Virus record (IMG/VR): IMGVR_UViG_2872180393_000002
Length of the DNA stretch: 17,175 nucleotides
Direction: 5' to 3' (one strand)
Origin: a virus
Lineage: Duplodnaviria > Heunggongvirae > Uroviricota > Caudoviricetes
The notes beneath the pieces were generated by a model. The model worked only from the letters and a program-made list of their open reading frames with translations, was not told where the DNA came from and searched no databases. Positions 2,945 through 17,175 of this stretch are shown piece by piece. The translations under genes and the position numbers were made by a program. Every line of letters starts with the position of its first letter. Within the stretch, counting starts at the first letter, position 1.

Positions 2945-3619
2945 ATGAATTCCCAGACAACAAAAGATATTCCCTGCTTCCGTTCTTATTTGCCTGATGC
3001 CCTGCGTTTAAGATTTGAAGATAAACTGACCATCCGGGCCATCGCTCAGCGTCTGGGTCTCAGTCATTCCACAATACATACGCTTTTTCAGCGATTTCTT
3101 GCATCCGGTATCGCATGGCCATTGCCCGATTCAGTTTCATTCGCTCAACTTGACGCCATCCTTTATGCCAACAGAAAGAAGGAATTAACAGAGCCTCAAA
3201 TCAGAGAAGGCTCATGGCGAAAAGAACGGCGAACCAGCTATAGCCGTGAATTTAAGGTCCGTCTGGCTAAGCAGGCGTTACAGCCTGGGGCTGTTGTTGC
3301 CCGGATCGCCAGAGAACACGATATCAATGATAACCTGCTGTTTAAATGGAAAAGCCAGTACGAGGACGGCTTACTGAGCGATGATGACATACAGGAATGC
3401 ATGCCTGTCCCGGTGGCACTGACTGATACGCCGGAGCCGACCAGACCAGTTACAAATCCCTTCTGGCGTAACAAGCATGATGAGCGCCCTGAGGGGGCTC
3501 CCGGAAACGTCCCACGGTGCGAGCTGCATCTTAAATCAGGTGTGGTAAAACTGTTTGACCCTCTCACTCCGGAACTGTTACGGGCGCTAATCCGCGAAAT
3601 GAAAGGGGGTATCCGATGA
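2945..3619 (+). CDS. IS66-family TnpA (helix-turn-helix accessory protein), 224 aa
   Basis: First ORF of the IS66 unit, with an IS66 orf1-like HTH region (SYSREFKVRLAKQAL..ARIAREHDINDNLLFKWKSQY). ATGA overlap with tnpB. Confidence 0.8.
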   Translation: MNSQTTKDIPCFRSYLPDALRLRFEDKLTIRAIAQRLGLSHSTIHTLFQRFLASGIAWPLPDSVSFAQLDAILYANRKKELTEPQIREGSWRKERRTSYSREFKVRLAKQALQPGAVVARIAREHDINDNLLFKWKSQYEDGLLSDDDIQECMPVPVALTDTPEPTRPVTNPFWRNKHDERPEGAPGNVPRCELHLKSGVVKLFDPLTPELLRALIREMKGGIR

Positions 3620-3963
3620 TAACGCTGCCGACCGGTACCAAAATCTGGATCATCGCTGGCATCACAGATATGCGTTGTGGCTTCAATGGCCTGGCTTCGA
3701 AGGTGCAGAACACGCTGAAAGATGACCCGTTCTCCGGGCATATCTTCGTCTTCCGGGGCCGCAGTGGCAAAATGGTGAAAATACTGTGGGCCGATCGTGA
3801 CGGGTTATGCCTGTTCGCCAAACGCCTGGAACGGGGCCGCTTCGTCTGGCCGGTGACCCGGGAAGGGAAAGTGCACCTGACGCCAGCTCAGTTATCCATG
3901 CTACTGGAGGGGATCGCGTGGCAACATCCAAAACGGACAGAACGGCCTGGCATCCGGATATAA
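3616..3963 (+). CDS. IS66-family TnpB (orf2), 115 aa
   Basis: Characteristic IS66 orf2 sequence (MRCGFNGLA..FVFRGRSGKMVKILWADRDGLCLFAKRLE). Confidence 0.9.
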   Translation: MITLPTGTKIWIIAGITDMRCGFNGLASKVQNTLKDDPFSGHIFVFRGRSGKMVKILWADRDGLCLFAKRLERGRFVWPVTREGKVHLTPAQLSMLLEGIAWQHPKRTERPGIRI

Positions 3964-3982
3964 CCCGTGATAAAACAAGGGA

Positions 3983-5584
3983 ATGAACAATGAACTCCCC
4001 GATGATATTGAGCTGCTTAAAGCCATGTTGCGTAAGCAACAGAGTCGGCTTCGACAGTATGCCTGTCAGGTCGCGGGCTATGAGCAGGAAATTGAACGGC
4101 TGAAAGCGCAACTCGACAGGTTGCGTCGTATGTTGTTCGGCCAGAGTTCAGAGAAAAAGCGTCATAAGCTTGAAAATCAGATCCGACAGGCAGAAAAACG
4201 ACTGTCGGAACTGGAAAACCGGCTGAACACAGCCAGAAATCTTCTGGAAGATGCATCGTCAGTCACAGATTCACCTGACACCAGTCCCCCGTCAGAAAAC
4301 CCGATCGCCAGTAAGCCTGAATCCCCGGGACGAAAATCTTCACGAAAACCGCTGCCGGCAGAACTTCCCCGGGAGACACATCGCCTTCTGCCTGCTGAAA
4401 CCAGTTGCCCGGCCTGTGGAGGTGTTCTGAAAGAAATGGGGGAAACAATCTCAGAGCAACTGGATATCATTAATACCGCCTTTAAAGTTATCGAAACCAT
4501 ACGTCCCAAACTGGCCTGTAGCCGGTGTGATGTCATCGTTCAGGCACCACTTCCCCCTAAACCGATCGAACGCGGTTATGCCAGTGCAGAGTTACTTGCA
4601 CGGATCCTGGTCAGCAAATATATGGAACATATCCCTTTATATCGCCAGTCAGAAATATACGCGCGACAGGGCGTGGAGCTGAGCCGTAATACCATGGTGC
4701 GCTGGGTATCAGAAATGGCAGACAAACTCCGTCCTCTGTATATAGCGCTGAATGACTATGTTCTGGAGGCAGGAAAGGTGCACGCAGATGACACTCCGGT
4801 GAAAGTACTGGCCCCGGGGAACGGAAAGACGAAAACGGGTCGTCTGTGGGTATACGTCAGGGATGATCGTAATGCGGGTTCATCCCTGCCGGCAGCCGTC
4901 TGGTTCGCGTATTCGGCAGATCGCAAAGGAGAACATCCGCAGCGCCACCTGGCAAAGTATCAGGGCGTACTGCAGGCTGATGCCTATGCAGGTTATAACG
5001 TACTGTACGAAACGGGCCGGGTGAAGGAAGCCGGGTGCCAGGCCCACGCCCGCCGAAAAATCCATGACGAGGATGTGCGCCGTCCGACAGAAATGACTCA
5101 GGAAGCGCTCAGACGGATAGCAGAGTTATACGACATAGAAGCGGAGATACGTGGCAGTCCGGCAGAGGAACGGCTTGCAGTCAGAAAAGCCAGAAGCGTC
5201 CAGTTGATGCAGTCGTTGTACGACTGGATACAGTTGCAGAGGAAAACGCTGTCGAAACATGCGGAGATGGCGAAGGCGTTCGACTATATCCTGAATCACT
5301 GGAATGCGCTGAACGAGTTCTGTCGTGACGGCTGGGTGGAAATAGACAACAACATCGGTGAAAACGCGTTACGATCGGTGGCGGTTGGAAGAAAAAATTA
5401 TCTCTTTTTCGGCTCAGACAAGGGAGGAGAAAGTGCGGCGATCATCTACAGTCTGCAGGTCACCTGCAAACAGAACGAAGTGGAGCCGGAGGACTGGTTG
5501 CGCGAAGTGATCGAGAAGCTCAATGACTGGCCGTCGAACCAAGTGCATGAACTGCTGCCCTGGAACTTCTCGTCTGTAAAATAA
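3983..5584 (+). CDS. IS66-family transposase TnpC (DDE), 533 aa
   Basis: N-terminal leucine zipper, CxxC..CxxC zinc finger, and a DDE core typical of IS66 TnpC. Confidence 0.9.
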
Positions 5585-5671: not shown

Positions 5672-6054
5672 TCAGAACGGAATATCATCACCGTAGGGGT
5701 CATCGTCTCCCGCTGGTGGCTGATTACCCTGTGTGCCTGTGGTTTTGCGTCTGTTCCCGCCAGGGCGTGCCGCTCGGGCACTGATTACGCTGTCGGCAAT
5801 AACCTGATAACCCTGCCGCGTTTCCCCGTTCTGTCCGGTCCACTGGCTGACCTGCATCGTGCCGGATACGCTGGCAACGTCGCCTTTTTGATGTTTAGCC
5901 AGGAAGTCGGCCTGCTTACCAAATGCCATCACCGATAGCCATAACGTCGCCTGTCCGTCCTGTGCCTGGCTGCATGGCAGCGATACCGCCATACGCGCCA
6001 GCGTCATCGGTGTGCCCTTGCTGGTCTGTTTTACCTGCGGGTCGTCCACCAACC
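5672..6054 (-). pseudogene. ssb: single-stranded DNA-binding protein, C-terminal 128 codons; gene interrupted by IS600-like copy A
   Basis: OB-fold core resembling E. coli SSB (W..V..FGK.A...KG...W) and the canonical acidic tail DDDPYGDDIPF. The N-terminus of the 143-aa ORF in the track is read through from the IS end. Confidence 0.8.
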
Positions 6055-6118
6055 TGAGGTAGCCTGAGTTTAACGGACACTCCTTCCTGAAATAGAATGG
6101 CATCAGAAGGAGCTAATA

Positions 6119-6421
6119 ATGAGCAGAAAAACCCAACGTTACTCTAAAGAGTTCAAAGCCGAAGCTGTCAGAACGGTTCTTGAAAATCAACTTTCGATCA
6201 GTGAAGGCGCTTCCCGATTATCCCTTCCTGAAGGCACTTTAGGACAATGGGTTACCGCCGCCAGAAAAGGGCTCGGTACTCCTGGTTCCCGCACGGTGGC
6301 TGAACTGGAATCTGAAATTCTGCAACTGCGTAAGGCGTTAAATGAAGCTCGCCTTGAGCGAGATATATTAAAAAAAGCAACAGCGTATTTTGCACAGGAG
6401 TCGCTGAAAAATACGCGTTAA
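6119..6421 (+). CDS. IS3-family OrfA (HTH), IS600-like
   Basis: 100-aa ORF with an IS3-type HTH and leucine zipper, identical in all three copies. Confidence 0.9.
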   Translation: MSRKTQRYSKEFKAEAVRTVLENQLSISEGASRLSLPEGTLGQWVTAARKGLGTPGSRTVAELESEILQLRKALNEARLERDILKKATAYFAQESLKNTR

Positions 6422-6456
6422 TCGAACAATGGCGACAACAATTTCCCATTGAAGCG

Positions 6457-7275
6457 ATGTGTCAGGTATTTGGTGTATCCAGGAGCGGTTATTACAACTG
6501 GGTACAGCATGAACCCTCAGACAGAAAACAAAGTGATGAGCGGCTAAAACTGGAGATTAAGGTGGCACATATCCGCACTCGCGAAACATATGGAACCCGG
6601 CGGCTCCAGACGGAGCTGGCAGAGAATGGCATCATCGTTGGTCGTGACCGACTGGCACGTCTTCGTAAGGAGCTAAGGCTACGCTGTAAGCAGAAACGCA
6701 AGTTCAGAGCGACTACGAACCCGAACCACAATCTGCCAGTTGCGCCAAATCTGCTGAACCAGACGTTCGCTCCTACAGCACCAAATCAGGTCTGGGTGGC
6801 GGACCTGACGTATGTTGCCACACAGGAGGGATGGTTGTACCTAGCTGGCATCAAAGATGTTTATACGTGCGAAATTGTCGGCTACGCCATGGGAGAGCGC
6901 ATGACAAAAGAGCTGACAGGTAAAGCCCTGTTTATGGCGCTCAGGAGCCAGCGCCCACCTGCCGGGCTAATCCACCACTCTGATCGAGGTTCACAGTACT
7001 GCGCATACGATTACCGGGTCATACAGGAGCAGTTTGGTCTGAAAACATCAATGTCGCGTAAAGGTAACTGTTACGACAACGCTCCGATGGAAAGCTTCTG
7101 GGGAACGCTGAAAAATGAGAGCCTGAGCCACTATCGTTTTAATAACCGGGATGAAGACATCTCAGTAATACGGGAATACATTGAGATTTTCTACAATCGT
7201 CAGCGTCGTCACTCTCGTCTGGGGAATATCTCCCCGGCAGCCTTCAGGGAAAAATATCATCATATGGCTGCTTAA
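6457..7275 (+). CDS. IS3-family OrfB (DDE integrase-type transposase catalytic domain); expressed as an OrfAB fusion by -1 frameshifting
   Basis: DDE / rve-type motifs (WVADLTY..., HHSDRGSQY..., NAPMESFWGTLKNE). The frame is open upstream of the first ATG back to the slippery site. Confidence 0.9.
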   Translation: MCQVFGVSRSGYYNWVQHEPSDRKQSDERLKLEIKVAHIRTRETYGTRRLQTELAENGIIVGRDRLARLRKELRLRCKQKRKFRATTNPNHNLPVAPNLLNQTFAPTAPNQVWVADLTYVATQEGWLYLAGIKDVYTCEIVGYAMGERMTKELTGKALFMALRSQRPPAGLIHHSDRGSQYCAYDYRVIQEQFGLKTSMSRKGNCYDNAPMESFWGTLKNESLSHYRFNNRDEDISVIREYIEIFYNRQRRHSRLGNISPAAFREKYHHMAA

Positions 7276-7318
7276 AAAAAGAACAAATGGTAGTGTCCGC
7301 TATTGCCAGTACACCTCA

Positions 7319-7349
7319 ACCGTCCGTAAGCTGCTATCTGTGCTGTCAT
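7319..7349 (-). pseudogene. ssb: ssb N-terminal fragment (first 10 codons, MTAQIAAYGR), separated from the rest by IS600-like copy A
   Basis: ATG at 7347-7349 with a GAGGTGG RBS. Removing the IS and one copy of the ACC duplication restores one continuous SSB frame. Confidence 0.7.
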
Positions 7350-7544
7350 GATTCCACCTCTCCGGTTTTAACGTTGATGGTTGTTACCTGTTCCGCTTCG
7401 GCAATCTCCCGTTCTGTCAGCGTGGCAAAGTTTGCCGCTGCTGTGGTCATGAATGCGCTTATCAGGTCGGGATGTTCCTTCGCGTATCCTTCCCCGCGTG
7501 GCGGTCTATCGTTCTGATTGCCACCTTTAAAGCGTGCTCTGTCA
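7346..7544 (-). other. two candidate micro-ORFs (7461-7544, 27 codons; 7346-7450, 34 codons) upstream of ssb, the second overlapping the ssb start in an ATGA arrangement
   Basis: Open frames only. Ribosome-binding sites are weak and no family is recognisable. Confidence 0.2.
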
Positions 7545-7671
7545 TGTCTAACGCGCGATATTTCGGTTCTGTTCTGTCTCTGCGTTTTTTGAGTGATTTA
7601 TTAAATTTTCCTGAAGTGTGCATGTTTATTTTTACCCCCTCGTTTAAAAAGTTTTGAGTTGTGCCTCCCCT

Positions 7672-7887
7672 TGTCTACCTTATCTACCTTGCTGGCCCTC
7701 ATGCCAGTAATGGCGCGGCTTTCAGCGGGGTAGAGTGCTTTTATCCACTATCTACCCCGTGTCTACCTCCCTGTCTGATTCAGGTAAAATCAGGTAGAGA
7801 GGGTAGATAGTGGGTAGACAGTAAAAAAAGCTGTCTACCTAACTTAATGTACTGAATTAAATGTATTTTCCTTTGCTCAGGTAGACA
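7672..7887. repeat. iteron array, putative replication origin: 8-bp motif TGTCTACC / TATCTACC in both orientations, with a flanking AT-rich region
   Basis: Direct copies at 7672, 7681, 7749, 7760 and 7832. Inverted copies (GGTAGACA / GGTAGATA / GGTAGAG) at 7728, 7793, 7802, 7813 and 7880. The array lies immediately 3' of the primase-helicase gene. Confidence 0.6.
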
Positions 7888-7901
7888 GCAATTACAAAAA
7901 A

Positions 7902-8246
7902 TTATAAAAACGCGTCGCACTCGTCTGTTGTTATTGCGTTAGTCTGCGTTACCCCCTTAACTTTCCGCGTAATATATTCATGTCCGTAAACTTTTGCGGC
8001 AGGCTTCATAGCCTTGCCAAAGTCATTTACGTTTAGCGGTTTGCTCCTGCCTGCGTATGCCATAAACGCCAGATAGACGCGGTAAAGGCTGTTCCTGGTC
8101 GTGTACTTCACTGAATCACCACCGCCACCCATCATCAGGCCGCGCGCTTCCTCCAGAAAATTCAGGAACTGGCAAAACTCAATAACCGGATCCGTCTGTT
8201 GCTTTATTGCCAGTGCTTCATCACCGTCACGCTGTTCCAGTAGTAA
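7902..8246 (-). pseudogene. primase-helicase C-terminal fragment (about 115 codons, candidate origin-binding domain), cut off by IS600-like copy B
   Basis: Removing the IS and one TAA duplication joins this frame (LLLEQRDGDEALAIKQ...TTDECDAFL) in phase to the ORF at 9511-10923. Confidence 0.7.
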
Positions 8247-8289
8247 TGAGGTGTACTGGCAATAGCGGACACTACCATTTGTTCTTTTT

Positions 8290-9108
8290 TTAAGCAGCCA
8301 TCTGATGATATTTTTCCCTGAAGGCTGCCGGGGAGATATTCCCCAGACGAGAGTGACGACGCTGACGATTGTAGAAAATCTCAATGTATTCCCGTATTAC
8401 TGAGATGGCTTCATCCCGGTTATTAAAACGATAGTGGCTCAGGCTCTCATTTTTCAGCGTTCCCCAGAAGCTTTCCATCGGAGCGTTGTCGTAACAGTTA
8501 CCTTTACGCGACATTGATGTTTTCAGACCAAACTGCTCCTGTATGACCCGGTAATCGTATGCGCAGTACTGTGAACCTCGATCAGAGTGGTGGATTAGCC
8601 CGGCAGGTGGGCGCTGGCTCCTGAGCGCCATAAACAGGGCTTTACCTGTCAGCTCTTTTGTCATGCGCTCTCCCATGGCGTAGCCGACAATTTCGCACGT
8701 ATAAACATCTTTGATGCCAGCTAGGTACAACCATCCCTCCTGTGTGGCAACATACGTCAGGTCCGCCACCCAGACCTGATTTGGTGCTGTAGGAGCGAAC
8801 GTCTGGTTCAGCAGATTTGGCGCAACTGGCAGATTGTGGTTCGGGTTCGTAGTCGCTCTGAACTTGCGTTTCTGCTTACAGCGTAGCCTTAGCTCCTTAC
8901 GAAGACGTGCCAGTCGGTCACGACCAACGATGATGCCATTCTCTGCCAGCTCCGTCTGGAGCCGCCGGGTTCCATATGTTTCGCGAGTGCGGATATGTGC
9001 CACCTTAATCTCCAGTTTTAGCCGCTCATCACTTTGTTTTCTGTCTGAGGGTTCATGCTGTACCCGGTTGTAATAACCGCTCCTGGATACACCAAATACC
9101 TGACACAT
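8290..9108 (-). CDS. IS3-family OrfB (DDE), copy B
   Basis: Matches copy A except for point differences (W to R near the N-terminus, D to A, H to Q near the C-terminus). Confidence 0.9.
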   Translation of the reverse strand: MCQVFGVSRSGYYNRVQHEPSDRKQSDERLKLEIKVAHIRTRETYGTRRLQTELAENGIIVGRDRLARLRKELRLRCKQKRKFRATTNPNHNLPVAPNLLNQTFAPTAPNQVWVADLTYVATQEGWLYLAGIKDVYTCEIVGYAMGERMTKELTGKALFMALRSQRPPAGLIHHSDRGSQYCAYDYRVIQEQFGLKTSMSRKGNCYDNAPMESFWGTLKNESLSHYRFNNRDEAISVIREYIEIFYNRQRRHSRLGNISPAAFREKYHQMAA

Positions 9109-9143
9109 CGCTTCAATGGGAAATTGTTGTCGCCATTGTTCGA

Positions 9144-9446
9144 TTAACGCGTATTTTTCAGCGACTCCTGTGCAAAATACGCTGTTGCTTTTTTTAATAT
9201 ATCTCGCTCAAGGCGAGCTTCATTTAACGCCTTACGCAGTTGCAGAATTTCAGATTCCAGTTCAGCCACCGTGCGGGAACCAGGAGTACCGAGCCCTTTT
9301 CTGGCGGCGGTAACCCATTGTCCTAAAGTGCCTTCAGGAAGGGATAATCGGGAAGCGCCTTCACTGATCGAAAGTTGATTTTCAAGAACCGTTCTGACAG
9401 CTTCGGCTTTGAACTCTTTAGAGTAACGTTGGGTTTTTCTGCTCAT
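9144..9446 (-). CDS. IS3-family OrfA, copy B
   Basis: Identical to OrfA of copy A. Confidence 0.9.
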   Translation of the reverse strand: MSRKTQRYSKEFKAEAVRTVLENQLSISEGASRLSLPEGTLGQWVTAARKGLGTPGSRTVAELESEILQLRKALNEARLERDILKKATAYFAQESLKNTR

Positions 9447-9507
9447 TATTAGCTCCTTCTGATGCCATTCTATTTCAGGAAGGAGTGTCCGTTAAACTCA
9501 GGCTACC

Positions 9508-10923
9508 TCATAAAGCCCGTGCCTTCTCAGGGTCGGTAAAGTTCGCCAGCAATCGGCGGATAATAACGGGGATTTCAGCCGCAATCTTTTCCGGTAGCTC
9601 CCTGTCTTTTTCGGCCTCACTGACGATATTGTCGAAACGGAAAATCACGCGACGACGTGCCACACCTCCGGCCCGTTCGGTGAATATCATCGGGTTGTTG
9701 TCGGTCGCCAGCACCACCGCCCTGATTACCGCCGTGAAACGCTTTTCATATTTCGGGTTAATTTCCACGGGGTCGCCGCCCGTGATTTTCTTGATGCCCG
9801 TTCCTTCGCCTGTATATTTCGGCTGGTCAGCCAGGACGATAAGACGACTCCCGACAACCTGCGCACGTCCACCAGCATCATCAAGCGATGTCATTTCAGC
9901 GCTTACCGTGTTCTGTTTCCCTGCCAGAAGGCTGGCTATGTGTGTGAATGTACTTTTACCGCTCCCGCCGTCTCCGGTGGCCTCAATAAACATCTGCCAG
10001 TCGTACCGGTTCGCCATAATCATGTAAAGCGCGGCACATATGCGCATCATCTTGCGCGGGTCTTTTCCGGCTGCGTGATCAAGCCATTTATGAAAGTTTG
10101 GCGCGTTGTCGCGGATATTCTCCCCTGGTGCTGGTGGCGTGTACTCAATGCCGTTGTGCGTGGTGATCCAGTTCTCCGGCGTGTGCGGGGAAAATTCCCC
10201 CGTTTTCAGGTTAAGCACACCATTAGTGAACGGTAGCAAATCACTGGACGGCTCGCCCATCGGGTCAGCAATAACTTTTAACGCTTCAACGGCGTTATTA
10301 ATTGCCCGCTTGCTGAATGTGGCCCCGTGTTCTGAATAAACCGCCACCATTTCGCGGCTCAGTTCCATTGTGCTGACCGGACACCATATCCCGCCGCGCC
10401 ATACGTGAACGATTTCACTTTCCGGATGCACACAAACGCCATCAAATCGACCAGCAAGCATCTGTGCGCGCTCACTGTCTGCCATCTGCGAAAGTTGCGC
10501 CTTTTGCTTTACCGGAAGCTCAATGACCAGACCATCAGAAAGATTCTGGCGTTCACGGGCCAGATATTCGCGCCAGTTCTGCACCTCCTGGCCGTGCATA
10601 CCCTCAAGATAAAAATTTGCATCCTGTACACCTGCCGCCGCCAGCTTCTGACCAATCGCCTTGATCATTACAGGCTCAAGATGTCCGGCTCTGTATATGC
10701 GTGCTGATTTTCTGCCATCCGGCACAATTTGCAGATTATCCAGTTCGGATAGCTGCTGCTCTCCAAGCCACACAGGAGGCTCATTATCTCCGGCTGTACG
10801 CGCGTCATGTTCCTGCCACTGTTTCGCGTGTGCCCAGGCATCACTACCCGCAAAGATAATTACCTCTGTGTCTTTGTGTTTTATTCCGCGTGGCTGTTTT
10901 TTTACGTTCGGTGCCAGTTTCAT
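9508..10923 (-). pseudogene. replication protein: N-terminal primase-associated region, D5_N-like region and SF3 (P4-alpha / D5-type) helicase with Walker A GDGGSGKST; truncated, with its stop codon supplied by the IS end
   Basis: Walker A and downstream SF3 motifs. The stop TGA is the complement of the terminal TCA of the IS at 9508-9510. Confidence 0.8.
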
Positions 10924-11224: not shown

Positions 11225-11458
11225 TTATTCTCCGGTGTGGGGCGCTTTATACTGGTCGTGTAATGTCTCTATTTCCTGCAACTCATTTATTACAGGCTCA
11301 AGAAGCGTTATTAATGCCGTGACAATCCTTGATTTCTGTTTATCACGCTCATTATCGCCAAATGTTTCCAGACACATTTGCAATATTTCCAACATATTTT
11401 CACTGTGAGAAAGTGCAAGAAATGCGCGGTCTGTTATTTCAATGTAAATATCACGCAT
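11225..11458 (-). CDS. hypothetical acidic 77-aa protein, first gene of the replication operon
   Basis: Bounded ORF with an upstream in-frame stop at 11471-11473 and a GGGG RBS. No family recognised. Confidence 0.45.
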   Translation of the reverse strand: MRDIYIEITDRAFLALSHSENMLEILQMCLETFGDNERDKQKSRIVTALITLLEPVINELQEIETLHDQYKAPHTGE

Positions 11459-11495
11459 AACCCCGTTACTTTATTCGTACCTCTTATAATGGGGT

Positions 11496-11691
11496 GTTAG
11501 CCAGCCAGACCCGGCATGATTACTGCCCCCAGTCGTCCATGATCCGGGGGGTGATGTCACCGGGTCTGGTGGGGCGCTGGTAACCGCTAATAGGGGTCAG
11601 GTCAGGCACTTTTGCCGGGACCGTCTGTAACGTGGATGCCGGTACCTGCTCCCCGTGGTTATCTGGTTAACCCATATACAAGGGAGACAGA
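11496..11691 (+). ncRNA. candidate IS110-type guide (bridge) RNA in the non-coding left end
   Basis: About 200 nt of structured non-coding DNA 5' of the recombinase gene, with a 10-bp stem CCAGACCCGG (11505-11514) / CCGGGTCTGG (11560-11569) and internal repeats. Based on position and structure only. Confidence 0.3.
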
Positions 11692-12915
11692 ATGACCGAA
11701 TCCAGCGATTACGAATCCGTCCAGGTCTTTATCGGCGTTGATGTCGGTAAAGATACGCATCACGCTGTTGCCATTAATCGTTCAGGTAAACGCCTGTTCG
11801 ATAAAGCATTACCCAACGACGAAAACAAACTCAGGTCGCTAATATCTGACCTGAAACAACATGGTCAGATACTTCTGGTTGTTGATCAGCCAGCTACCAT
11901 CGGTGCGTTACCTGTCGCCGTTGCCCGCTCAGAAGGAGTCCTTGTCGGATACCTCCCTGGACTGGCCATGCGCCGCATAGCCGACTTACACGCCGGTGAA
12001 GCTAAAACTGATGCTCGTGACGCTGCCATCATTGCCGAAGCTGCCCGTACCCTGCCTCACGCGCTACGCACGCTGAAACTGGCTGACGAGCAAATCGCCG
12101 AACTCTCCATGCTCTGCGGCTTCGATGATGATCTTGCCGCACAGACAACGCAGGCCAGCAACCGTATCCGCGGCCTTCTGACCCAGATACATCCGGCACT
12201 GGAGCGCGTTCTCGGTCCGAGACTTGAGCACCCGGCGGTACTCGATCTTCTCCAGCGATATCCCTCACCAGAAAAACTCGCTTCGCTGGGTGAGAAGAAG
12301 CTGGCAGCCCAGCTCTGCAAACTTGCGCCTCGTCTGGGTAAACGCCTTGCAGCAGACATAGCTCAGGCACTGGCCGAACAAACCGTCGTCGTTCCCGGCA
12401 CGAATGCCGCTGCCGTAGTACTGCCACGTCTGGCACTCCAGCTCATCACGCTGCGTAAGCAAAGAGACGAGGTGGCGCTTGAGGTAGAACAGCGAGTTCT
12501 TGCTCACCCTCTTTACCCGGTCCTGACCAGTATGCCCGGAGTCGGTGTCAGGACCGCAGCCAGACTCCTCACCGAGGTCGCCTGCCGCGCCTTCGCCTCT
12601 GCCGCACATCTCGCTGCTTATGCTGGCCTTGCGCCGGTAACTCGGCGATCCGGCTCGTCAATACGCGGTGAGCATCCCTCGCGACGGGGTAATAAAGCTC
12701 TCAAACGGGCGTTGTTCCTGTCGGCCTTCGCCGCGCTCAGGGATCCGCTCTCCAGGGCTTACTACACCCGCAAAATGAGTCAGGGAAAACGACACAATCA
12801 GGCGCTTATCGCCCTGGCGAATACGGGCCGCGAATACAGCAACACAACCGGACGGGCAATGGTTACGCGCTTCGCGTTCAGTCCAGGCGGTGACGTGGAT
12901 GATTTGGGACTCTGA
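11692..12915 (+). CDS. IS110-family recombinase/transposase (N-terminal DEDD RuvC-like domain, C-terminal Tnp domain), 407 aa
   Basis: N-terminal IGVDVGKDTHH motif, helix-hairpin-helix MPGVGVRTAARLL, and C-terminal RRSGSSIRGEH..ALKRALFLSAF serine motif. AGGGAG RBS. Confidence 0.9.
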   Translation: MTESSDYESVQVFIGVDVGKDTHHAVAINRSGKRLFDKALPNDENKLRSLISDLKQHGQILLVVDQPATIGALPVAVARSEGVLVGYLPGLAMRRIADLHAGEAKTDARDAAIIAEAARTLPHALRTLKLADEQIAELSMLCGFDDDLAAQTTQASNRIRGLLTQIHPALERVLGPRLEHPAVLDLLQRYPSPEKLASLGEKKLAAQLCKLAPRLGKRLAADIAQALAEQTVVVPGTNAAAVVLPRLALQLITLRKQRDEVALEVEQRVLAHPLYPVLTSMPGVGVRTAARLLTEVACRAFASAAHLAAYAGLAPVTRRSGSSIRGEHPSRRGNKALKRALFLSAFAALRDPLSRAYYTRKMSQGKRHNQALIALANTGREYSNTTGRAMVTRFAFSPGGDVDDLGL

Positions 12916-13149
12916 CGCACCAAAGGCGATAAAGCGCCAGAGAAAGGCGGTTTGAGAATGTACAAGGGTAGGGGTAGTAGCCATGTCGGCAGCCTCCTTG
13001 ATTGATGGAATGTAACCACCGCCGGAGGTCCTAAGCTCGCTGGCGGTGGACTGTACAGGGTTAGGACTACTGGCAATCAAGGGAACCAGCCTACCCGAAG
13101 GTAGCCCCATACAGCCCACCATTGTATAGGTGTGCGTGTGCGTCGATAC

Positions 13150-13171
13150 AAAAAAAGACGCGTGCGGCGTC
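13150..13171 (-). terminator. candidate rho-independent terminator on the minus strand inside a roughly 500-bp non-coding, structured region
   Basis: Hairpin GACGC-gtgcg-GCGTC at 13157-13171, preceded on the plus strand by A7 (13150-13156), which is a U7 tail on the minus strand. Confidence 0.3.
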
Positions 13172-13432
13172 TGTATCGCCTCGATTGTCAGCGGGGTCCT
13201 AATCCCGGCACCCGTTTTATAAGGTGCACGCGAATCATAGCCTTGGCTGGCAGTGGCGATCAACTGGTTTTTCATACCCGCTTTATTCAGGTTGTGCGAG
13301 TCCCGCCCTTGCAGGTGTGTGGTATGATTTAACATAGCTACCTCGATACTGTTGCTATCGTTGGTGGTTAGACGCCCTGCATGTGTTGCGAGCACTGCGG
13401 GGCGTTGCTTAATTTGAGTGACAAAACTCAAA

Positions 13433-13512
13433 CTGCGCGCACAGATTAAAATCATGTGTGCGCACATGTCAATACTTAACATCTCATTTTTTTTGCTGTA
13501 TTGTGTGCGCCC
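13433..13512. promoter_or_regulatory. cluster of TGTGCGCAC-type palindromic operator-like sites upstream of the 65-aa gene
   Basis: CTGCGCGCACAG at 13433-13444, near-palindrome CATGTGTGCGCACATG at 13453-13468, and TTGTGTGCGCCC at 13501-13512. Confidence 0.4.
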
Positions 13513-13540
13513 ATAAAGTCCATTTAAGTGAGGTGCATCA

Positions 13541-13738
13541 ATGTCTAGCGGTAACACAAACAACAAATCAGCAAAGAAAAATATTCGATTCCCACATGAG
13601 CTTATAGATGGGGTTTATGCCAGCGTTGAACAAGAAAAATTAACTAATCCTAGTGCTAATTTTTCCGCATGGGTCTTAGATGCCTGTGGACGCAAATTAA
13701 AATATGAACAGCGCCGGAAGGCCAAAGAATCAGAATAA
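13541..13738 (+). CDS. small 65-aa DNA-binding-like protein (ribbon-helix-helix-like pattern); candidate regulator
   Basis: GTGAGG RBS 7 nt upstream. The pattern KNIRFPHELIDGV followed by two predicted helices resembles RHH regulators. Assigned by eye only. Confidence 0.45.
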   Translation: MSSGNTNNKSAKKNIRFPHELIDGVYASVEQEKLTNPSANFSAWVLDACGRKLKYEQRRKAKESE

Positions 13739-13762
13739 TCACTATCAGCGCCGTGGCGTGAG

Positions 13763-13975
13763 GTGCTACGGCGCATTGCTTTACAGGTACACACAATGAC
13801 CAACAAAGAATCAACCAATACACCATCGCAAAAAACGAACAGAGAGCACGAAAATATGGCGCTCGAGCATGAATCAGAAAGATTCGCACCATGTGCTTTT
13901 GCCCTTGAGCAATTCCTTAAAGAGTACAGGGAAACGCGCTCATTGCAGGTATGGCAACGAACTGAACCAGCCTGA
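13763..13975 (+). CDS. hypothetical protein of 59-70 aa (likely start MTNKES..)
   Basis: Open frame downstream of the 65-aa gene, convergent with alpA. No family recognised. Confidence 0.3.
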   Translation: MLRRIALQVHTMTNKESTNTPSQKTNREHENMALEHESERFAPCAFALEQFLKEYRETRSLQVWQRTEPA

Positions 13976-14048
13976 TAGCGTCTATCATCCCCGTGCTTAT
14001 GTTTGGGATCACATACACATAAGGCGCAGCGGGTTAATTGTTCAGAAA

Positions 14049-14076
14049 GGCGGCTCCATATCGGGGCCGCTTTTTT
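14049..14076 (+). terminator. weak candidate terminator for the plus-strand small genes
   Basis: 5-bp stem GCGGC/GCCGC around an 11-nt loop, followed by T6 (14071-14076). Confidence 0.25.
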
Positions 14077-14102
14077 CGTGTTTGTCATATCTGTGATACC
14101 CG

Positions 14103-14309
14103 TTAAGCAGCCGTTCCGCGTGCTTCCTGTTCGCGTTCTTTCTGCCAGGCCAACACATCATCCTCATACCATCCGCGACGGCGTAAACCAACGCGAAAAC
14201 CCTGCGGAAATTCTCCGGCGTTGATCATGCTTTGCAGCGTGCTGTCTGCCTTGATGTGGATAATTTTTTTTACTTCCTGGCGAAAGATAATTTTTCTGAT
14301 TGCTTCCAT
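14103..14309 (-). CDS. alpA: AlpA-family transcriptional regulator / excisionase-like protein (68 aa)
   Basis: Size, position next to a P4-type integrase, and the motif pattern (IHIKADSTLQSMINAGEFPQGFRVGLRRRGWYEDDVLAWQ) typical of the phage AlpA DNA-binding domain. Confidence 0.75.
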   Translation of the reverse strand: MEAIRKIIFRQEVKKIIHIKADSTLQSMINAGEFPQGFRVGLRRRGWYEDDVLAWQKEREQEARGTAA

Positions 14310-14784: not shown

Positions 14785-15552
14785 CTACACGGCTCGGATA
14801 CCCCTTTTACCACTGGCGAGGGTTACGCCCGTCGCCGCAGCCTCGACAAATTCGCCCCACCAGCGCATCAGCACGATGCGTTTTTCTATGTAGTTGCTCC
14901 GGTTGTATGCCCGTCTAACTTCGTTGGTGTCGACGTGGGCAAGTGCCGCCTCTATTACGTCCGGCTCGAATCCTTCCTCGTTCGCTGCTGTGCTGAATAT
15001 GGCGCGTAATCCATGAGACACCAGCACGCCAGCGAATCCCATACGCTGCAATGCTGCGTTAGCGGTCTGGCTGTTCATCGGCTGCTGTGGGTCTTTCAGA
15101 CTTGGGAAAACGTAATTGCGGTGGTGGCTGATTGGTTTCATGGCCTCCAGCACCGCCATAGCCTGACCGGAAAGCGGGATAACGTGATCCCTGCGCATCT
15201 TCATGCGTCCTGCAGGTATCGTCCATTGCTTCGCGTCCAGGTTGATTTCATCCCACCGCGTTGATGACGCTTCGGCGGGACGGGTTACGGTCAGTAACTG
15301 CCATTCAATCAGTAATCTGGTCTGCCGTTCTGTTGCCGATACTGATAAAGCCTGCATAAGCTCCGGCAGCTGTTCGGGGCGGATTGTTGGCATATGTTTT
15401 TTTACAGGTGAGGGAAACGCCTTACGCACATTCATAGCCGGATTGGCATCAATCAGCCCACTGTTGGCGGCGTAATCCATTACCTCATTAACGCGCTGTA
15501 AAACCCGCTTGAGTGTTTCCAGGTTGCCGCGCTCCTTGATGGGTGTAAGCAC
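14785..15552 (-). pseudogene. int: tyrosine integrase (P4-type), C-terminal catalytic part; gene interrupted by IS600-like copy C
   Basis: Catalytic-domain motifs HGLRAIFST (H-x-x-R) and RAYNRSNY (tyrosine nucleophile). The 5' end abuts the IS at 15552/15553. Confidence 0.85.
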
Positions 15553-15616
15553 TGAGGTAGCCTGAGTTTAACGGACACTCCTTCCTGAAATAGAATGGCA
15601 TCAGAAGGAGCTAATA

Positions 15617-15919
15617 ATGAGCAGAAAAACCCAACGTTACTCTAAAGAGTTCAAAGCCGAAGCTGTCAGAACGGTTCTTGAAAATCAACTTTCGATCAGT
15701 GAAGGCGCTTCCCGATTATCCCTTCCTGAAGGCACTTTAGGACAATGGGTTACCGCCGCCAGAAAAGGGCTCGGTACTCCTGGTTCCCGCACGGTGGCTG
15801 AACTGGAATCTGAAATTCTGCAACTGCGTAAGGCGTTAAATGAAGCTCGCCTTGAGCGAGATATATTAAAAAAAGCAACAGCGTATTTTGCACAGGAGTC
15901 GCTGAAAAATACGCGTTAA
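15617..15919 (+). CDS. IS3-family OrfA, copy C
   Basis: Identical to OrfA of copies A and B. Confidence 0.9.
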   Translation: MSRKTQRYSKEFKAEAVRTVLENQLSISEGASRLSLPEGTLGQWVTAARKGLGTPGSRTVAELESEILQLRKALNEARLERDILKKATAYFAQESLKNTR

Positions 15920-15954
15920 TCGAACAATGGCGACAACAATTTCCCATTGAAGCG

Positions 15955-16815
15955 ATGTGTCAGGTATTTGGTGTATCCAGGAGCGGTTATTACAACTGGG
16001 TACAGCATGAACCCTCAGACAGAAAACAAAGTGATGAGCGGCTAAAACTGGAGATTAAGGTGGCACATATCCGCACTCGCGAAACATATGGAACCCGGCG
16101 GCTCCAGACGGAGCTGGCAGAGAATGGCATCATCGTTGGTCGTGACCGACTGGCACGTCTTCGTAAGGAGCTAAGGCTACGCTGTAAGCAGAAACGCAAG
16201 TTCAGAGCGACTACGAACCCGAACCACAATCTGCCAGTTGCGCCAAATCTGCTGAACCAGACGTTCGCTCCTACAGCACCAAATCAGGTCTGGGTGGCGG
16301 ACCTGACGTATGTTGCCACACAGGAGGGATGGTTGTACCTAGCTGGCATCAAAGATGTTTATACGTGCGAAATTGTCGGCTACGCCATGGGAGAGCGCAT
16401 GACAAAAGAGCTGACAGGTAAAGCCCTGTTTATGGCGCTCAGGAGCCAGCGCCCACCTGCCGGGCTAATCCACCACTCTGATCGAGGTTCACAGTACTGC
16501 GCATACGATTACCGGGTCATACAGGAGCAGTTTGGTCTGAAAACATCAATGTCGCGTAAAGGTAACTGTTACGACAACGCTCCGATGGAAAGCTTCTGGG
16601 GAACGCTGAAAAATGAGAGCCTGAGCCACTATCGTTTTAATAACCGGGATGAAGCCATCTCAGTAATACGGGAATACATTGAGATTTTCTACAATCGTCA
16701 GCGTCGTCACTCTCGTCTGGGGAATATCTCCCGGCAGCCTTCAGGGAAAAATATCATCAGATGGCTGCTTAAAAAAAGAACAAATGGTAGTGTCCGCTAT
16801 TGCCAGTACACCTCA
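15955..16815 (+). pseudogene. IS3-family OrfB, copy C, frameshifted about 14 codons before the normal stop by a 1-bp deletion; the frame reads out of the IS to 17175
   Basis: CTCCCGGCAG here versus CTCCCCGGCAG in copies A and B. The DDE core lies upstream of the lesion and is intact. Confidence 0.8.
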
Positions 16816-17175
16816 CACCTCAACGAACCTTCGGGTGGTGAGGGTATCTATTGGCGTGTTGCCGATGAACGGGAATACATATTTATCCAGCGAACGCCAG
16901 ATATCTTTAATCGTGTTGGGGGCCAGATTCTGGCTGATTTTCACCTGGTACCATGCCGCCGCCACATTTTCGACTTCGGGCCTCTGTCTCTCTTTTTTGC
17001 CTCTCGTGGTCCTGCGGGTCAGTTCCGGCACGAATTAACGCCCTGTACTCGCTACGGCGTTTTCTGGCATCAGCCAGGGAAACATCTTCAAGCGATCCAA
17101 AACTCAGCAATATTCTTTTTTTGTCCGATGGTCGGTAGTAGGAAAATCTCCAGAGTTTTGATCCAGACGGTTTGA
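16816..17175 (-). pseudogene. int: tyrosine integrase N-terminal part (partial at the window edge), with an internal frameshift near 16975-17005
   Basis: Two overlapping frames carry consecutive integrase N-terminal homology: ..GSKLWRFSY..SLEDVSLADARKRR..GTDPQDHER, then ..NVAAAWYQVK..YVFPFIGNTPIDTLT. They switch near a T6 run at 16993-16998. Confidence 0.75.

Follow-up and report, generated by a model that had tools for sequence, protein, structure and literature searches.

Among known systems, the locus reported here comes closest to the RNA-based immunity operons of P4 and of P1/P7. The P4 immunity region is ordered PLL/PLE - eta - seqA - cI - seqC - kil; in P4 the immunity factor is an RNA, and the long open reading frame eta matters through its own translation. 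Forti et al. reportedly described in 1999 a kil gene of 65 aa and an eta ORF of 197-199 aa that begins ahead of PLE and depends on PLL alone for its expression; translation of eta is said to prevent termination. The C4/CI RNA is cut at its 5' end by RNase P in both P1 and P4. In P1/P7 the immI operon is ordered a1 b1 - c4 - a2 b2 - icd - ant, and the c4 mechanism of P1 is said to go back to the work of Citron and Schuster in 1990.

A third related arrangement is isrK-orf45-anrP of the Salmonella prophage Gifsy-1. The study of that locus regards IsrK as structurally homologous to P4 SeqA. It describes a processed RNA located downstream of IsrK, activation by the short IsrK, and translation of an ORF with two AUG starts 12 nt apart (PMC4825925). 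Relatives of CI and seqA in Gram-negative PICIs can be detected with the C4 and isrK profiles of Rfam (Mageeney et al. 2023; PMC10111431).

We analyzed a stretch of Caudoviricetes DNA of 17,175 nucleotides (IMG/VR record IMGVR_UViG_2872180393_000002), referred to here as the window. The surrounding element encodes an integrase, a D5_N/DUF5906 primase, the lambda-type capsid protein E, and the head-decoration protein D, and has a match in a capsid-encoding satellite of E. coli EH41. On the basis of this gene content and this match we consider it a P4-like/PICI-type satellite. Our reading of positions 13020-13540, to which we assign a probability of roughly 0.88, is that they form the P4-type RNA-immunity control region of this capsid-encoding satellite, with a layout homologous to the P4 and P1 operons.

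Two RNA genes on the minus strand

Scanning the whole window with Rfam returned exactly two matches at gathering threshold, both full length and both on the minus strand. The first is an IsrK/SeqA-type sRNA at 13227 to 13151 (RF01394, 64 bits versus a gathering score of 50, model positions 1-77 of 77). The second, 24 nt further on, is a C4/CI-type antisense RNA at 13126 to 13039 (RF01695, 78.6 bits versus a gathering score of 45, model positions 1-87 of 87). A permissive scan of 12900-13800 added only a sub-threshold match to the c4-a1b1 motif, and nothing in 13228-13540. That motif (RF03163) reaches 17.7 bits at 13240 to 13188, against a gathering score of 46.7, and P4 also falls short of it at 44.1 bits. 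The role of a1/b1 is instead shown below by covariation.

The C4 RNA has the architecture of its family, a long outer stem enclosing two hairpins, and these helices are backed by covariation. A tRNA-like stem of the acceptor type, with a 3' tail containing CCA after it, can be seen in its sequence. IsrK has a predicted transcription start from its own promoter and ends in a Rho-independent terminator, found by a terminator scan at 13172-13150 on the minus strand. The hairpin, AGACGC-CGCAC-GCGTCT, occupies 13172 to 13156 and is followed by a run of seven T at 13156 to 13150 (RNAfold, -8.0 kcal/mol). It is 6 bp long and GC-rich, is kept in relatives, and includes a covarying pair (57-71). The initial annotation had pointed to this terminator-like hairpin with its U7 tail and had proposed that a minus-strand regulatory sRNA of the satellite's immunity ends near 13150. 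The hairpin marks the end of the IsrK match, and the proposed sRNA is supported by the isrK and C4 families, the P4-like layout, and the covarying contacts; that there are two RNAs rather than one had been passed over.

A stable stem had also been noted at about 13016-13050. The inverted repeat CCACCGCCGG / CTGGCGGTGG is located at 13016-13025 and 13040-13049, and the hairpin that it forms on the minus strand (13016..13049) is the one that presents the target a2, a role that had gone unrecognized. Its helix is 92% paired in relatives with two compensatory pairs, one changing from A-U to G-C and the other from G-C to A-U, and its 5' arm shares bases with the 3' arm of the C4 outer stem. The description of the entire ~500 bp as highly structured holds only in part. 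On the minus strand, the fold of 12975-13240 is more stable than that of any of 200 dinucleotide shuffles (z = -3.57), but 13228-13540 has no significant structure (z = -1.41, with 7 of 100 shuffles equally good).

A recognition code supported by covariation

The two exposed elements of C4 are complementary to two sets of targets, one upstream in IsrK and the other downstream. On the minus strand, the element b' (CCTTGATTG, 13082-13074) lies in a 12-nt loop of C4, and a' (GTCCTAA, 13067-13061) in its 3' single strand. The upstream targets are a1 (TTAGGAC, 13202-13196) in the loop of IsrK hairpin 2 and b1 (CAATCGAGG, 13187-13179), also inside IsrK. The downstream targets are a2 (TTAGGAC, 13034-13028) in the loop of the 13016-13049 hairpin and b2 (CAATCAAGG, 13004-12996), which overlaps the Shine-Dalgarno sequence AAGGAGG (12999-12993) of the first gene. 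This gene is of the icd/kil cell-division-inhibitor type (12812..12984, minus strand; NCBIfam phage_ICD_like, 60 bits). Its ATG is at 12984, 8 nt beyond the end of the Shine-Dalgarno sequence, and its 3' end is truncated, the final ~5 codons having been lost at a deletion junction; EH41 has an intact 63-aa homologue.

A structure-conservation analysis, one of the checks suggested in the initial annotation, confirmed that both the helices and the RNA-RNA contacts covary. Using nhmmer, we found the module in 36 of 80 viral-collection loci, which had been retrieved with the Icd alignment, and always in the same register. These yielded 16 distinct, unambiguously aligned modules of 246 nt, which make up the covariation set. 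A search of genome contigs with the Icd alignment gave only 7 loci (in other Enterobacterales), all 7 of them lacking C4 and isrK, and the covariation analysis accordingly used the viral-collection loci. Across the 16 modules, the intramolecular helices of IsrK and C4 are 93.8% paired, as compared with 38-47% when the partners are slid. The 17-bp outer stem of C4 is 99.6% paired and its hairpin 2 is 100% paired, while in the inner hairpin 1 all five pairs change on both sides. The alignment also contains invariant G-U pairs (columns 113-178 and 138-159), which establish that the transcribed strand is the minus strand.

Pairing of a'-a2 and b'-b2, between C4 and its downstream targets, stands at 98.4%, with two-sided change in 12 of 16 pairs, an outcome matched by none of 500 shuffles. 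Taken separately, a'-a2 is 100% paired with 5 of 7 pairs covarying, and b'-b2 is 97% paired with 7 of 9. For the upstream set, a1-a' and b1-b' likewise show two-sided change in 12 of 16 pairs (0 of 500 shuffles), and together with the a2 hairpin they are 95.3% paired with two-sided change in 14 of 24 pairs. In register, C4-target pairing thus amounts to 95-98%, versus 18-52% in slid controls. The recognition sites, of 7-9 nt each, change together at three separate places, IsrK, C4, and the icd leader. Relatives display 5 a-types and 6 b-types, which occur in 8 combinations, and one locus (L028) is an obvious recombinant. Free of any experiment, the covariation table cleanly confirms the two-site antisense code in PICI-type satellites.

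Comparison with P4, P1, and the Gifsy-1 and Stx phages

When P4 was scanned with Rfam, isrK was found at 8692 to 8615 and C4 at 8507 to 8420, both upstream of an ORF with an Icd-like C-terminus. Order and strand of the two RNAs are identical in P4 and in the window, and in both they precede an Icd-like ORF of 63-65 aa. The P4 kil ORF has the same domain and the same ribosome-binding site (AGGAGGCTGCCATCATGGCTAC) as the icd gene of the window, in an identical context (AGGAGGCTGCC..ATGGCTAC). A promoter, TTGCCT-17-TATAGT, lies 6 nt ahead of the P4 isrK match, as TTGATC-18-TATGAT does in the window. Followed upstream, the frame of the 65-aa P4 ORF has no stop across C4 and IsrK as far as three ATGs, from which the products would be 197-199 aa long. 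The eta-like ORF of the window (12812..13344, minus strand) has a GAGG Shine-Dalgarno sequence at 13344-13341 and an ATG at 13335, from which 117 codons run in frame through IsrK and C4 into icd. In both elements the long ORF begins upstream of the isrK promoter; a primase operon is located downstream in P4 and in intact relatives of the satellite.

The two differ in other respects. The spacer between IsrK and C4 is 107 nt in P4 versus 24 nt in the window. The a/b recognition sequences differ as well, and with them the immunity specificity. The upstream neighbor in the window is a divergent YlcI/YnfO gene with TGTGCGCACA repeats, whereas P4 has vis/orf88, and the element carries PICI-like, lambda-type capsid genes in place of the sid/psu/delta genes of P4.

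With P1/P7, for which we rely on established literature, the locus shares the Rfam C4 family, a two-element a'/b' code with target copies upstream and downstream, and a b2 that lies over the ribosome-binding site of icd, the first translated gene. In immI, however, the ant gene follows, whereas replication genes follow here, and the a1b1 segment of the window is an IsrK-type RNA with its own terminator.

Gifsy-1 has an RNA of the same Rfam isrK family, with a terminator and read-through, and its processed RNA downstream of IsrK is STnc1160. The AUG pair of Gifsy-1 lies at the start of the C4 region, and the window has the same AUGGUGGGCUGUAUGG at 13122-13107. In contrast, the short IsrK was shown to be an activator in Gifsy-1, and the downstream gene in Gifsy-1 and Stx phages is an anti-repressor or a Rha-family regulator rather than icd and primase. 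The Stx2-converting phage F039 (L092, 1516-1760) has a module that is ~89% identical to that of the window, and all six a/b sites are the same. Its C4 hairpin 1 differs by compensatory changes, and it is located upstream of a Rha-family regulator instead of icd. Records of Stx2 phages already annotate isrK and C4 on this ~89% identical module.

Promoters and the upstream region

A promoter scan placed the PisrK/PLE-like promoter on the minus strand at 13234..13263 (TTGATC, 18 nt, TATGAT). It ends 6 nt ahead of IsrK nucleotide 1, so that the predicted start is at ~13227, and in every relative both of its hexamers fall within the module's conserved left border. This border (AAAAACCnGTTGATCGCCA, at ~13262-13285 in the window, where it holds the -35 hexamer) is joined among the aligned loci (including L021, L031, L041, and the window) to four upstream ORF contexts, following NLNK, YIWRFLAR, WRFLALNIGE, and EQEARQ, and the frame is kept in all four.

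Further upstream, reading of the sequence gave a candidate PLL-like promoter on the minus strand at 13443..13472, with TTGACA at 13472-13467, an 18-nt spacer that contains the palindrome CATGTGCGCACACATG, and TAATCT at 13448-13443. The -10 hexamer matches the consensus weakly, too weakly for the rule of the promoter scan, and we infer the PLL-like assignment by position only. The divergent gene (13541..13738, plus strand) encodes a 65-aa protein of the YlcI/YnfO family (NCBIfam NF041551, 57.9 bits) and is annotated in the same way in EH41 and 042; the scan placed its promoter at 13476-13504 on the plus strand (TTAACA-17-TATTGT). Between this divergent promoter and the leftward promoter, a repeat search (families D1/D2 and I1-I3) identified three TGYGCGCRCA-type repeats at 13434-13513, namely TGCGCGCACA (13434), TGTGCGCACA (13457), and TGTGCGCCCA (13504), one of them in a 16-nt palindrome. 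They are probably repressor operators.

Proposed mechanism of the switch

By analogy with the described systems, the constitutive promoter at 13263-13234 would start transcription at IsrK nucleotide 1, and the intrinsic terminator would end most transcripts to give an IsrK/SeqA RNA of ~77 nt. Transcripts that read through would carry C4, which would be cut out of the precursor. Its a' and b' elements would then pair with a2 and b2 on the mRNA, with b2 covering the icd Shine-Dalgarno sequence. This pairing would block translation of icd, and the RNA would be terminated ahead of the downstream replication genes, keeping the satellite quiescent and immune to superinfecting relatives of the same specificity. 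The C4 elements would also pair with a1/b1 of IsrK, which may serve as a second target or a decoy. Transcripts from the candidate regulated promoter upstream would translate the eta-like ORF from ATG 13335 through IsrK, C4, and icd, and because of this translation they should be insensitive to the RNA repressor. The present analysis shows the family identity, the layout, the base-pairing code, and the ORF architecture; we infer processing, Rho-dependent termination, the direction of regulation, and the sign of the IsrK effect from P4, P1, and Gifsy-1. On direction, P4, P1, and Salmonella do not fully agree: C4 might be the repressor, or IsrK might be an activator or decoy.

The strongest alternative takes the latter side and, following Gifsy-1, makes IsrK the active regulator. 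The long transcript produced by read-through would be translationally silent, its a1/b1 paired in cis with the C4 loops, and short IsrK supplied in trans would open this structure or titrate C4, thereby activating icd and the downstream genes. The minimum free energy fold of 12975-13240 does pair a1/b1 of IsrK with the loops of C4 in cis, and a1/b1 covary with a'/b' as tightly as a2/b2 do. The Gifsy-1 experiments, in which short IsrK activates and the ORF has two AUGs (PMC4825925), are in keeping with it, given the same AUG-pair sequence in the window. In P4 and P1, however, C4/CI is the repressor and seqA (a1b1) is its target (established literature; discussed in PMC4825925). Activation by IsrK is, moreover, compatible with repression by C4, and sequence alone cannot tell which of the RNAs is limiting. 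We regard IsrK as the primary activator as a real possibility, yet one that is clearly less probable than control by C4 as in P4.

An open reading frame through the RNA genes

The region had been described as devoid of convincing ORFs, which is not the case, and the eta-like ORF that crosses it had been missed. A minus-strand ORF of 302 codons (13566 to 12658) spans it in frame with icd, and the part from ATG 13335 corresponds to the eta/kil arrangement of P4. ATG 13335 and ATG 12984 are nested in one open frame, and the longer ORF begins ahead of the constitutive promoter. Between the border of the module and the ATG of icd, this frame is free of stops in 28 of 29 distinct relatives, versus 1-4 and 3-11 stops in the other two frames. 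When stop counts were binned, only about -450..0, counted from the icd ATG, was depleted in all loci. In three loci (L015, L017, and L026) the icd frame has no stop over all 1500 nt upstream (500+ codons), running antisense through YlcI-like genes and intergenic DNA, as compared with 15-24 stops in most other loci. We had considered the long in-frame ORF as a novelty; this was rejected since P4 has the same eta/kil geometry.

Such a frame could mean that the region simply encodes a long Icd-like protein of ~180 aa and that the matches to RNA families are incidental. Besides the near-universal absence of stops, an indel of 3 nt between IsrK and C4 and the in-frame junction to four different upstream ORF contexts would fit a coding function, as would the long or partial 'Icd-like' CDSs that PGAP places over C4 in EH41. 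Nonetheless, the variation preserves base pairing and not amino acids. Codon changes in the eta-like leader are for the most part non-synonymous, and the 7-9-nt sites change in concert at three places. The ORF contains an intrinsic terminator with its U7 tail, and no more than the last 48 residues fall within the NCBIfam Icd domain. In P4, where we verified the same ORF geometry, the immunity factor is an RNA and eta reportedly acts through its translation. A purely protein-coding region is therefore very improbable, and any role of the eta-like leader would lie in the act of translation rather than in the peptide.

Relatives vary in how the RNA module and the icd frame are combined. In E. coli 042 (L002, 2851-3054, aligned with window 13282-13800), and in relatives of this type, the promoter region is 97% identical but IsrK and C4 are entirely absent, and the same ATG and leader (MRNHTTHPQGRDSHNLNK) continue straight into the Icd core, as though an in-frame deletion had taken out the RNA module. 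EH41 has a second copy of C4 without IsrK (L001, 5750-5837 and 5528-5992), inside a 154-aa 'Icd-like' CDS immediately after the first icd; this looks like a tandem duplication of C4-icd. PGAP also annotates a partial 'Icd-like' pseudogene over the first IsrK/C4 pair of EH41, apparently an artefact that arises when RNA genes are translated.

The ISEc20 remnant and a decaying element

Several insertion sequences are present in the element: IS66, three IS3-type copies, and ISEc20. The IS3-family copies, ~1.27 kb each and 99.7-99.8% identical, are located at 6054-7321 (plus), 8247-9510 (minus), and 15552-16819 (plus), and one inverted pair of them flanks 7322-8246. The IS66-family element (ORFs at 2945-5584) adjoins the capsid gene, and between the two is a perfect 32-bp palindrome, AATTATAACTGGATGTACATCCAGTTATAATT, at 2700-2731.

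ISEc20, of the IS110 family, is the element next to the RNA genes. Homology to independent copies of ISEc20, together with an NCBIfam IS110 match, identifies 11448..12820 (plus strand) as a remnant without its last 94 bp; intact copies run that much further and include the last 68 nt of the transposase gene. Satellite homology begins at 12812. What the initial annotation took for the probable right end of the IS is therefore a deletion junction, at 12812-12820, ~200 bp to the left of the stretch under study. An intact right end of ISEc20 is found in a related locus (L012), 164 bp past the icd stop. The window corresponds to that state after loss of 276 bp by a deletion at a 9-bp microhomology (CGCCAGGGC), which fused ISEc20 to the 3'-truncated icd. 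The 407-aa ORF annotated as 'transposase' (11692-12915) therefore has antisense icd sequence at its end.

The empty-site comparison that had been proposed could be carried out with an IS-free locus (L013), which matches window positions 14200-12812 and 11464-11001 and has a 385-nt leader identical to that of the window. The stretch is not absent along with the IS: both L013 and EH41, which are IS-free, retain all of it, with 12812-14200 at 92-96.5% identity. The suggestion that 13020-13540 is an unusually long right end of the IS110-family element, which has only adjacency to the transposase ORF in its favor, can be dismissed, because IS homology stops at 12820, where intact copies go on with different sequence for 94 bp, and because the stretch is kept in IS-free relatives, with the same module present in P4 and Stx phages where no IS is nearby.

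Intact relatives (EH41 and 042) have icd followed by DUF4222 and primase. In the window ISEc20 interrupts this link, and a further IS copy directly adjoins the D5_N primase ORF (9508-10923). The satellite as a whole is in an advanced state of decay: the switch itself is intact, but the ISEc20 remnant has broken its operon. With icd truncated and the replication operon cut off by ISEc20, no target in cis may be left for the switch.

Implications

The feature is real and ordinary, of a kind already known from curated families and from the literature on this satellite class. It implies no new biology and matters mainly for annotation: the region should be labeled as isrK/seqA and C4/cI RNA genes with an eta/kil-type ORF, and the labels IS DNA, intergenic DNA, and 'partial Icd-like' pseudogene (the PGAP annotation of the equivalent stretch in EH41) should be avoided. 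An intact switch persists in an IS-riddled, decaying element, and such a relic could still provide RNA-based immunity in trans.

A mildly new angle, and the only one, is the recognition code that the satellite shares with Stx2 phages. Since the satellite and Stx2-converting lambdoid phages carry identical a1/b1/a'/b'/a2/b2 sequences, the C4/IsrK RNAs of the satellite could cross-talk with the Rha/anti-repressor switch of the phage, or the phage RNAs with the switch of the satellite, a shared RNA code for sensing or manipulating the helper. We consider this rather unlikely. If true, the recognition types (5 a-types and 6 b-types, in 8 combinations) would amount to a specificity system that reassorts across phages and satellites.
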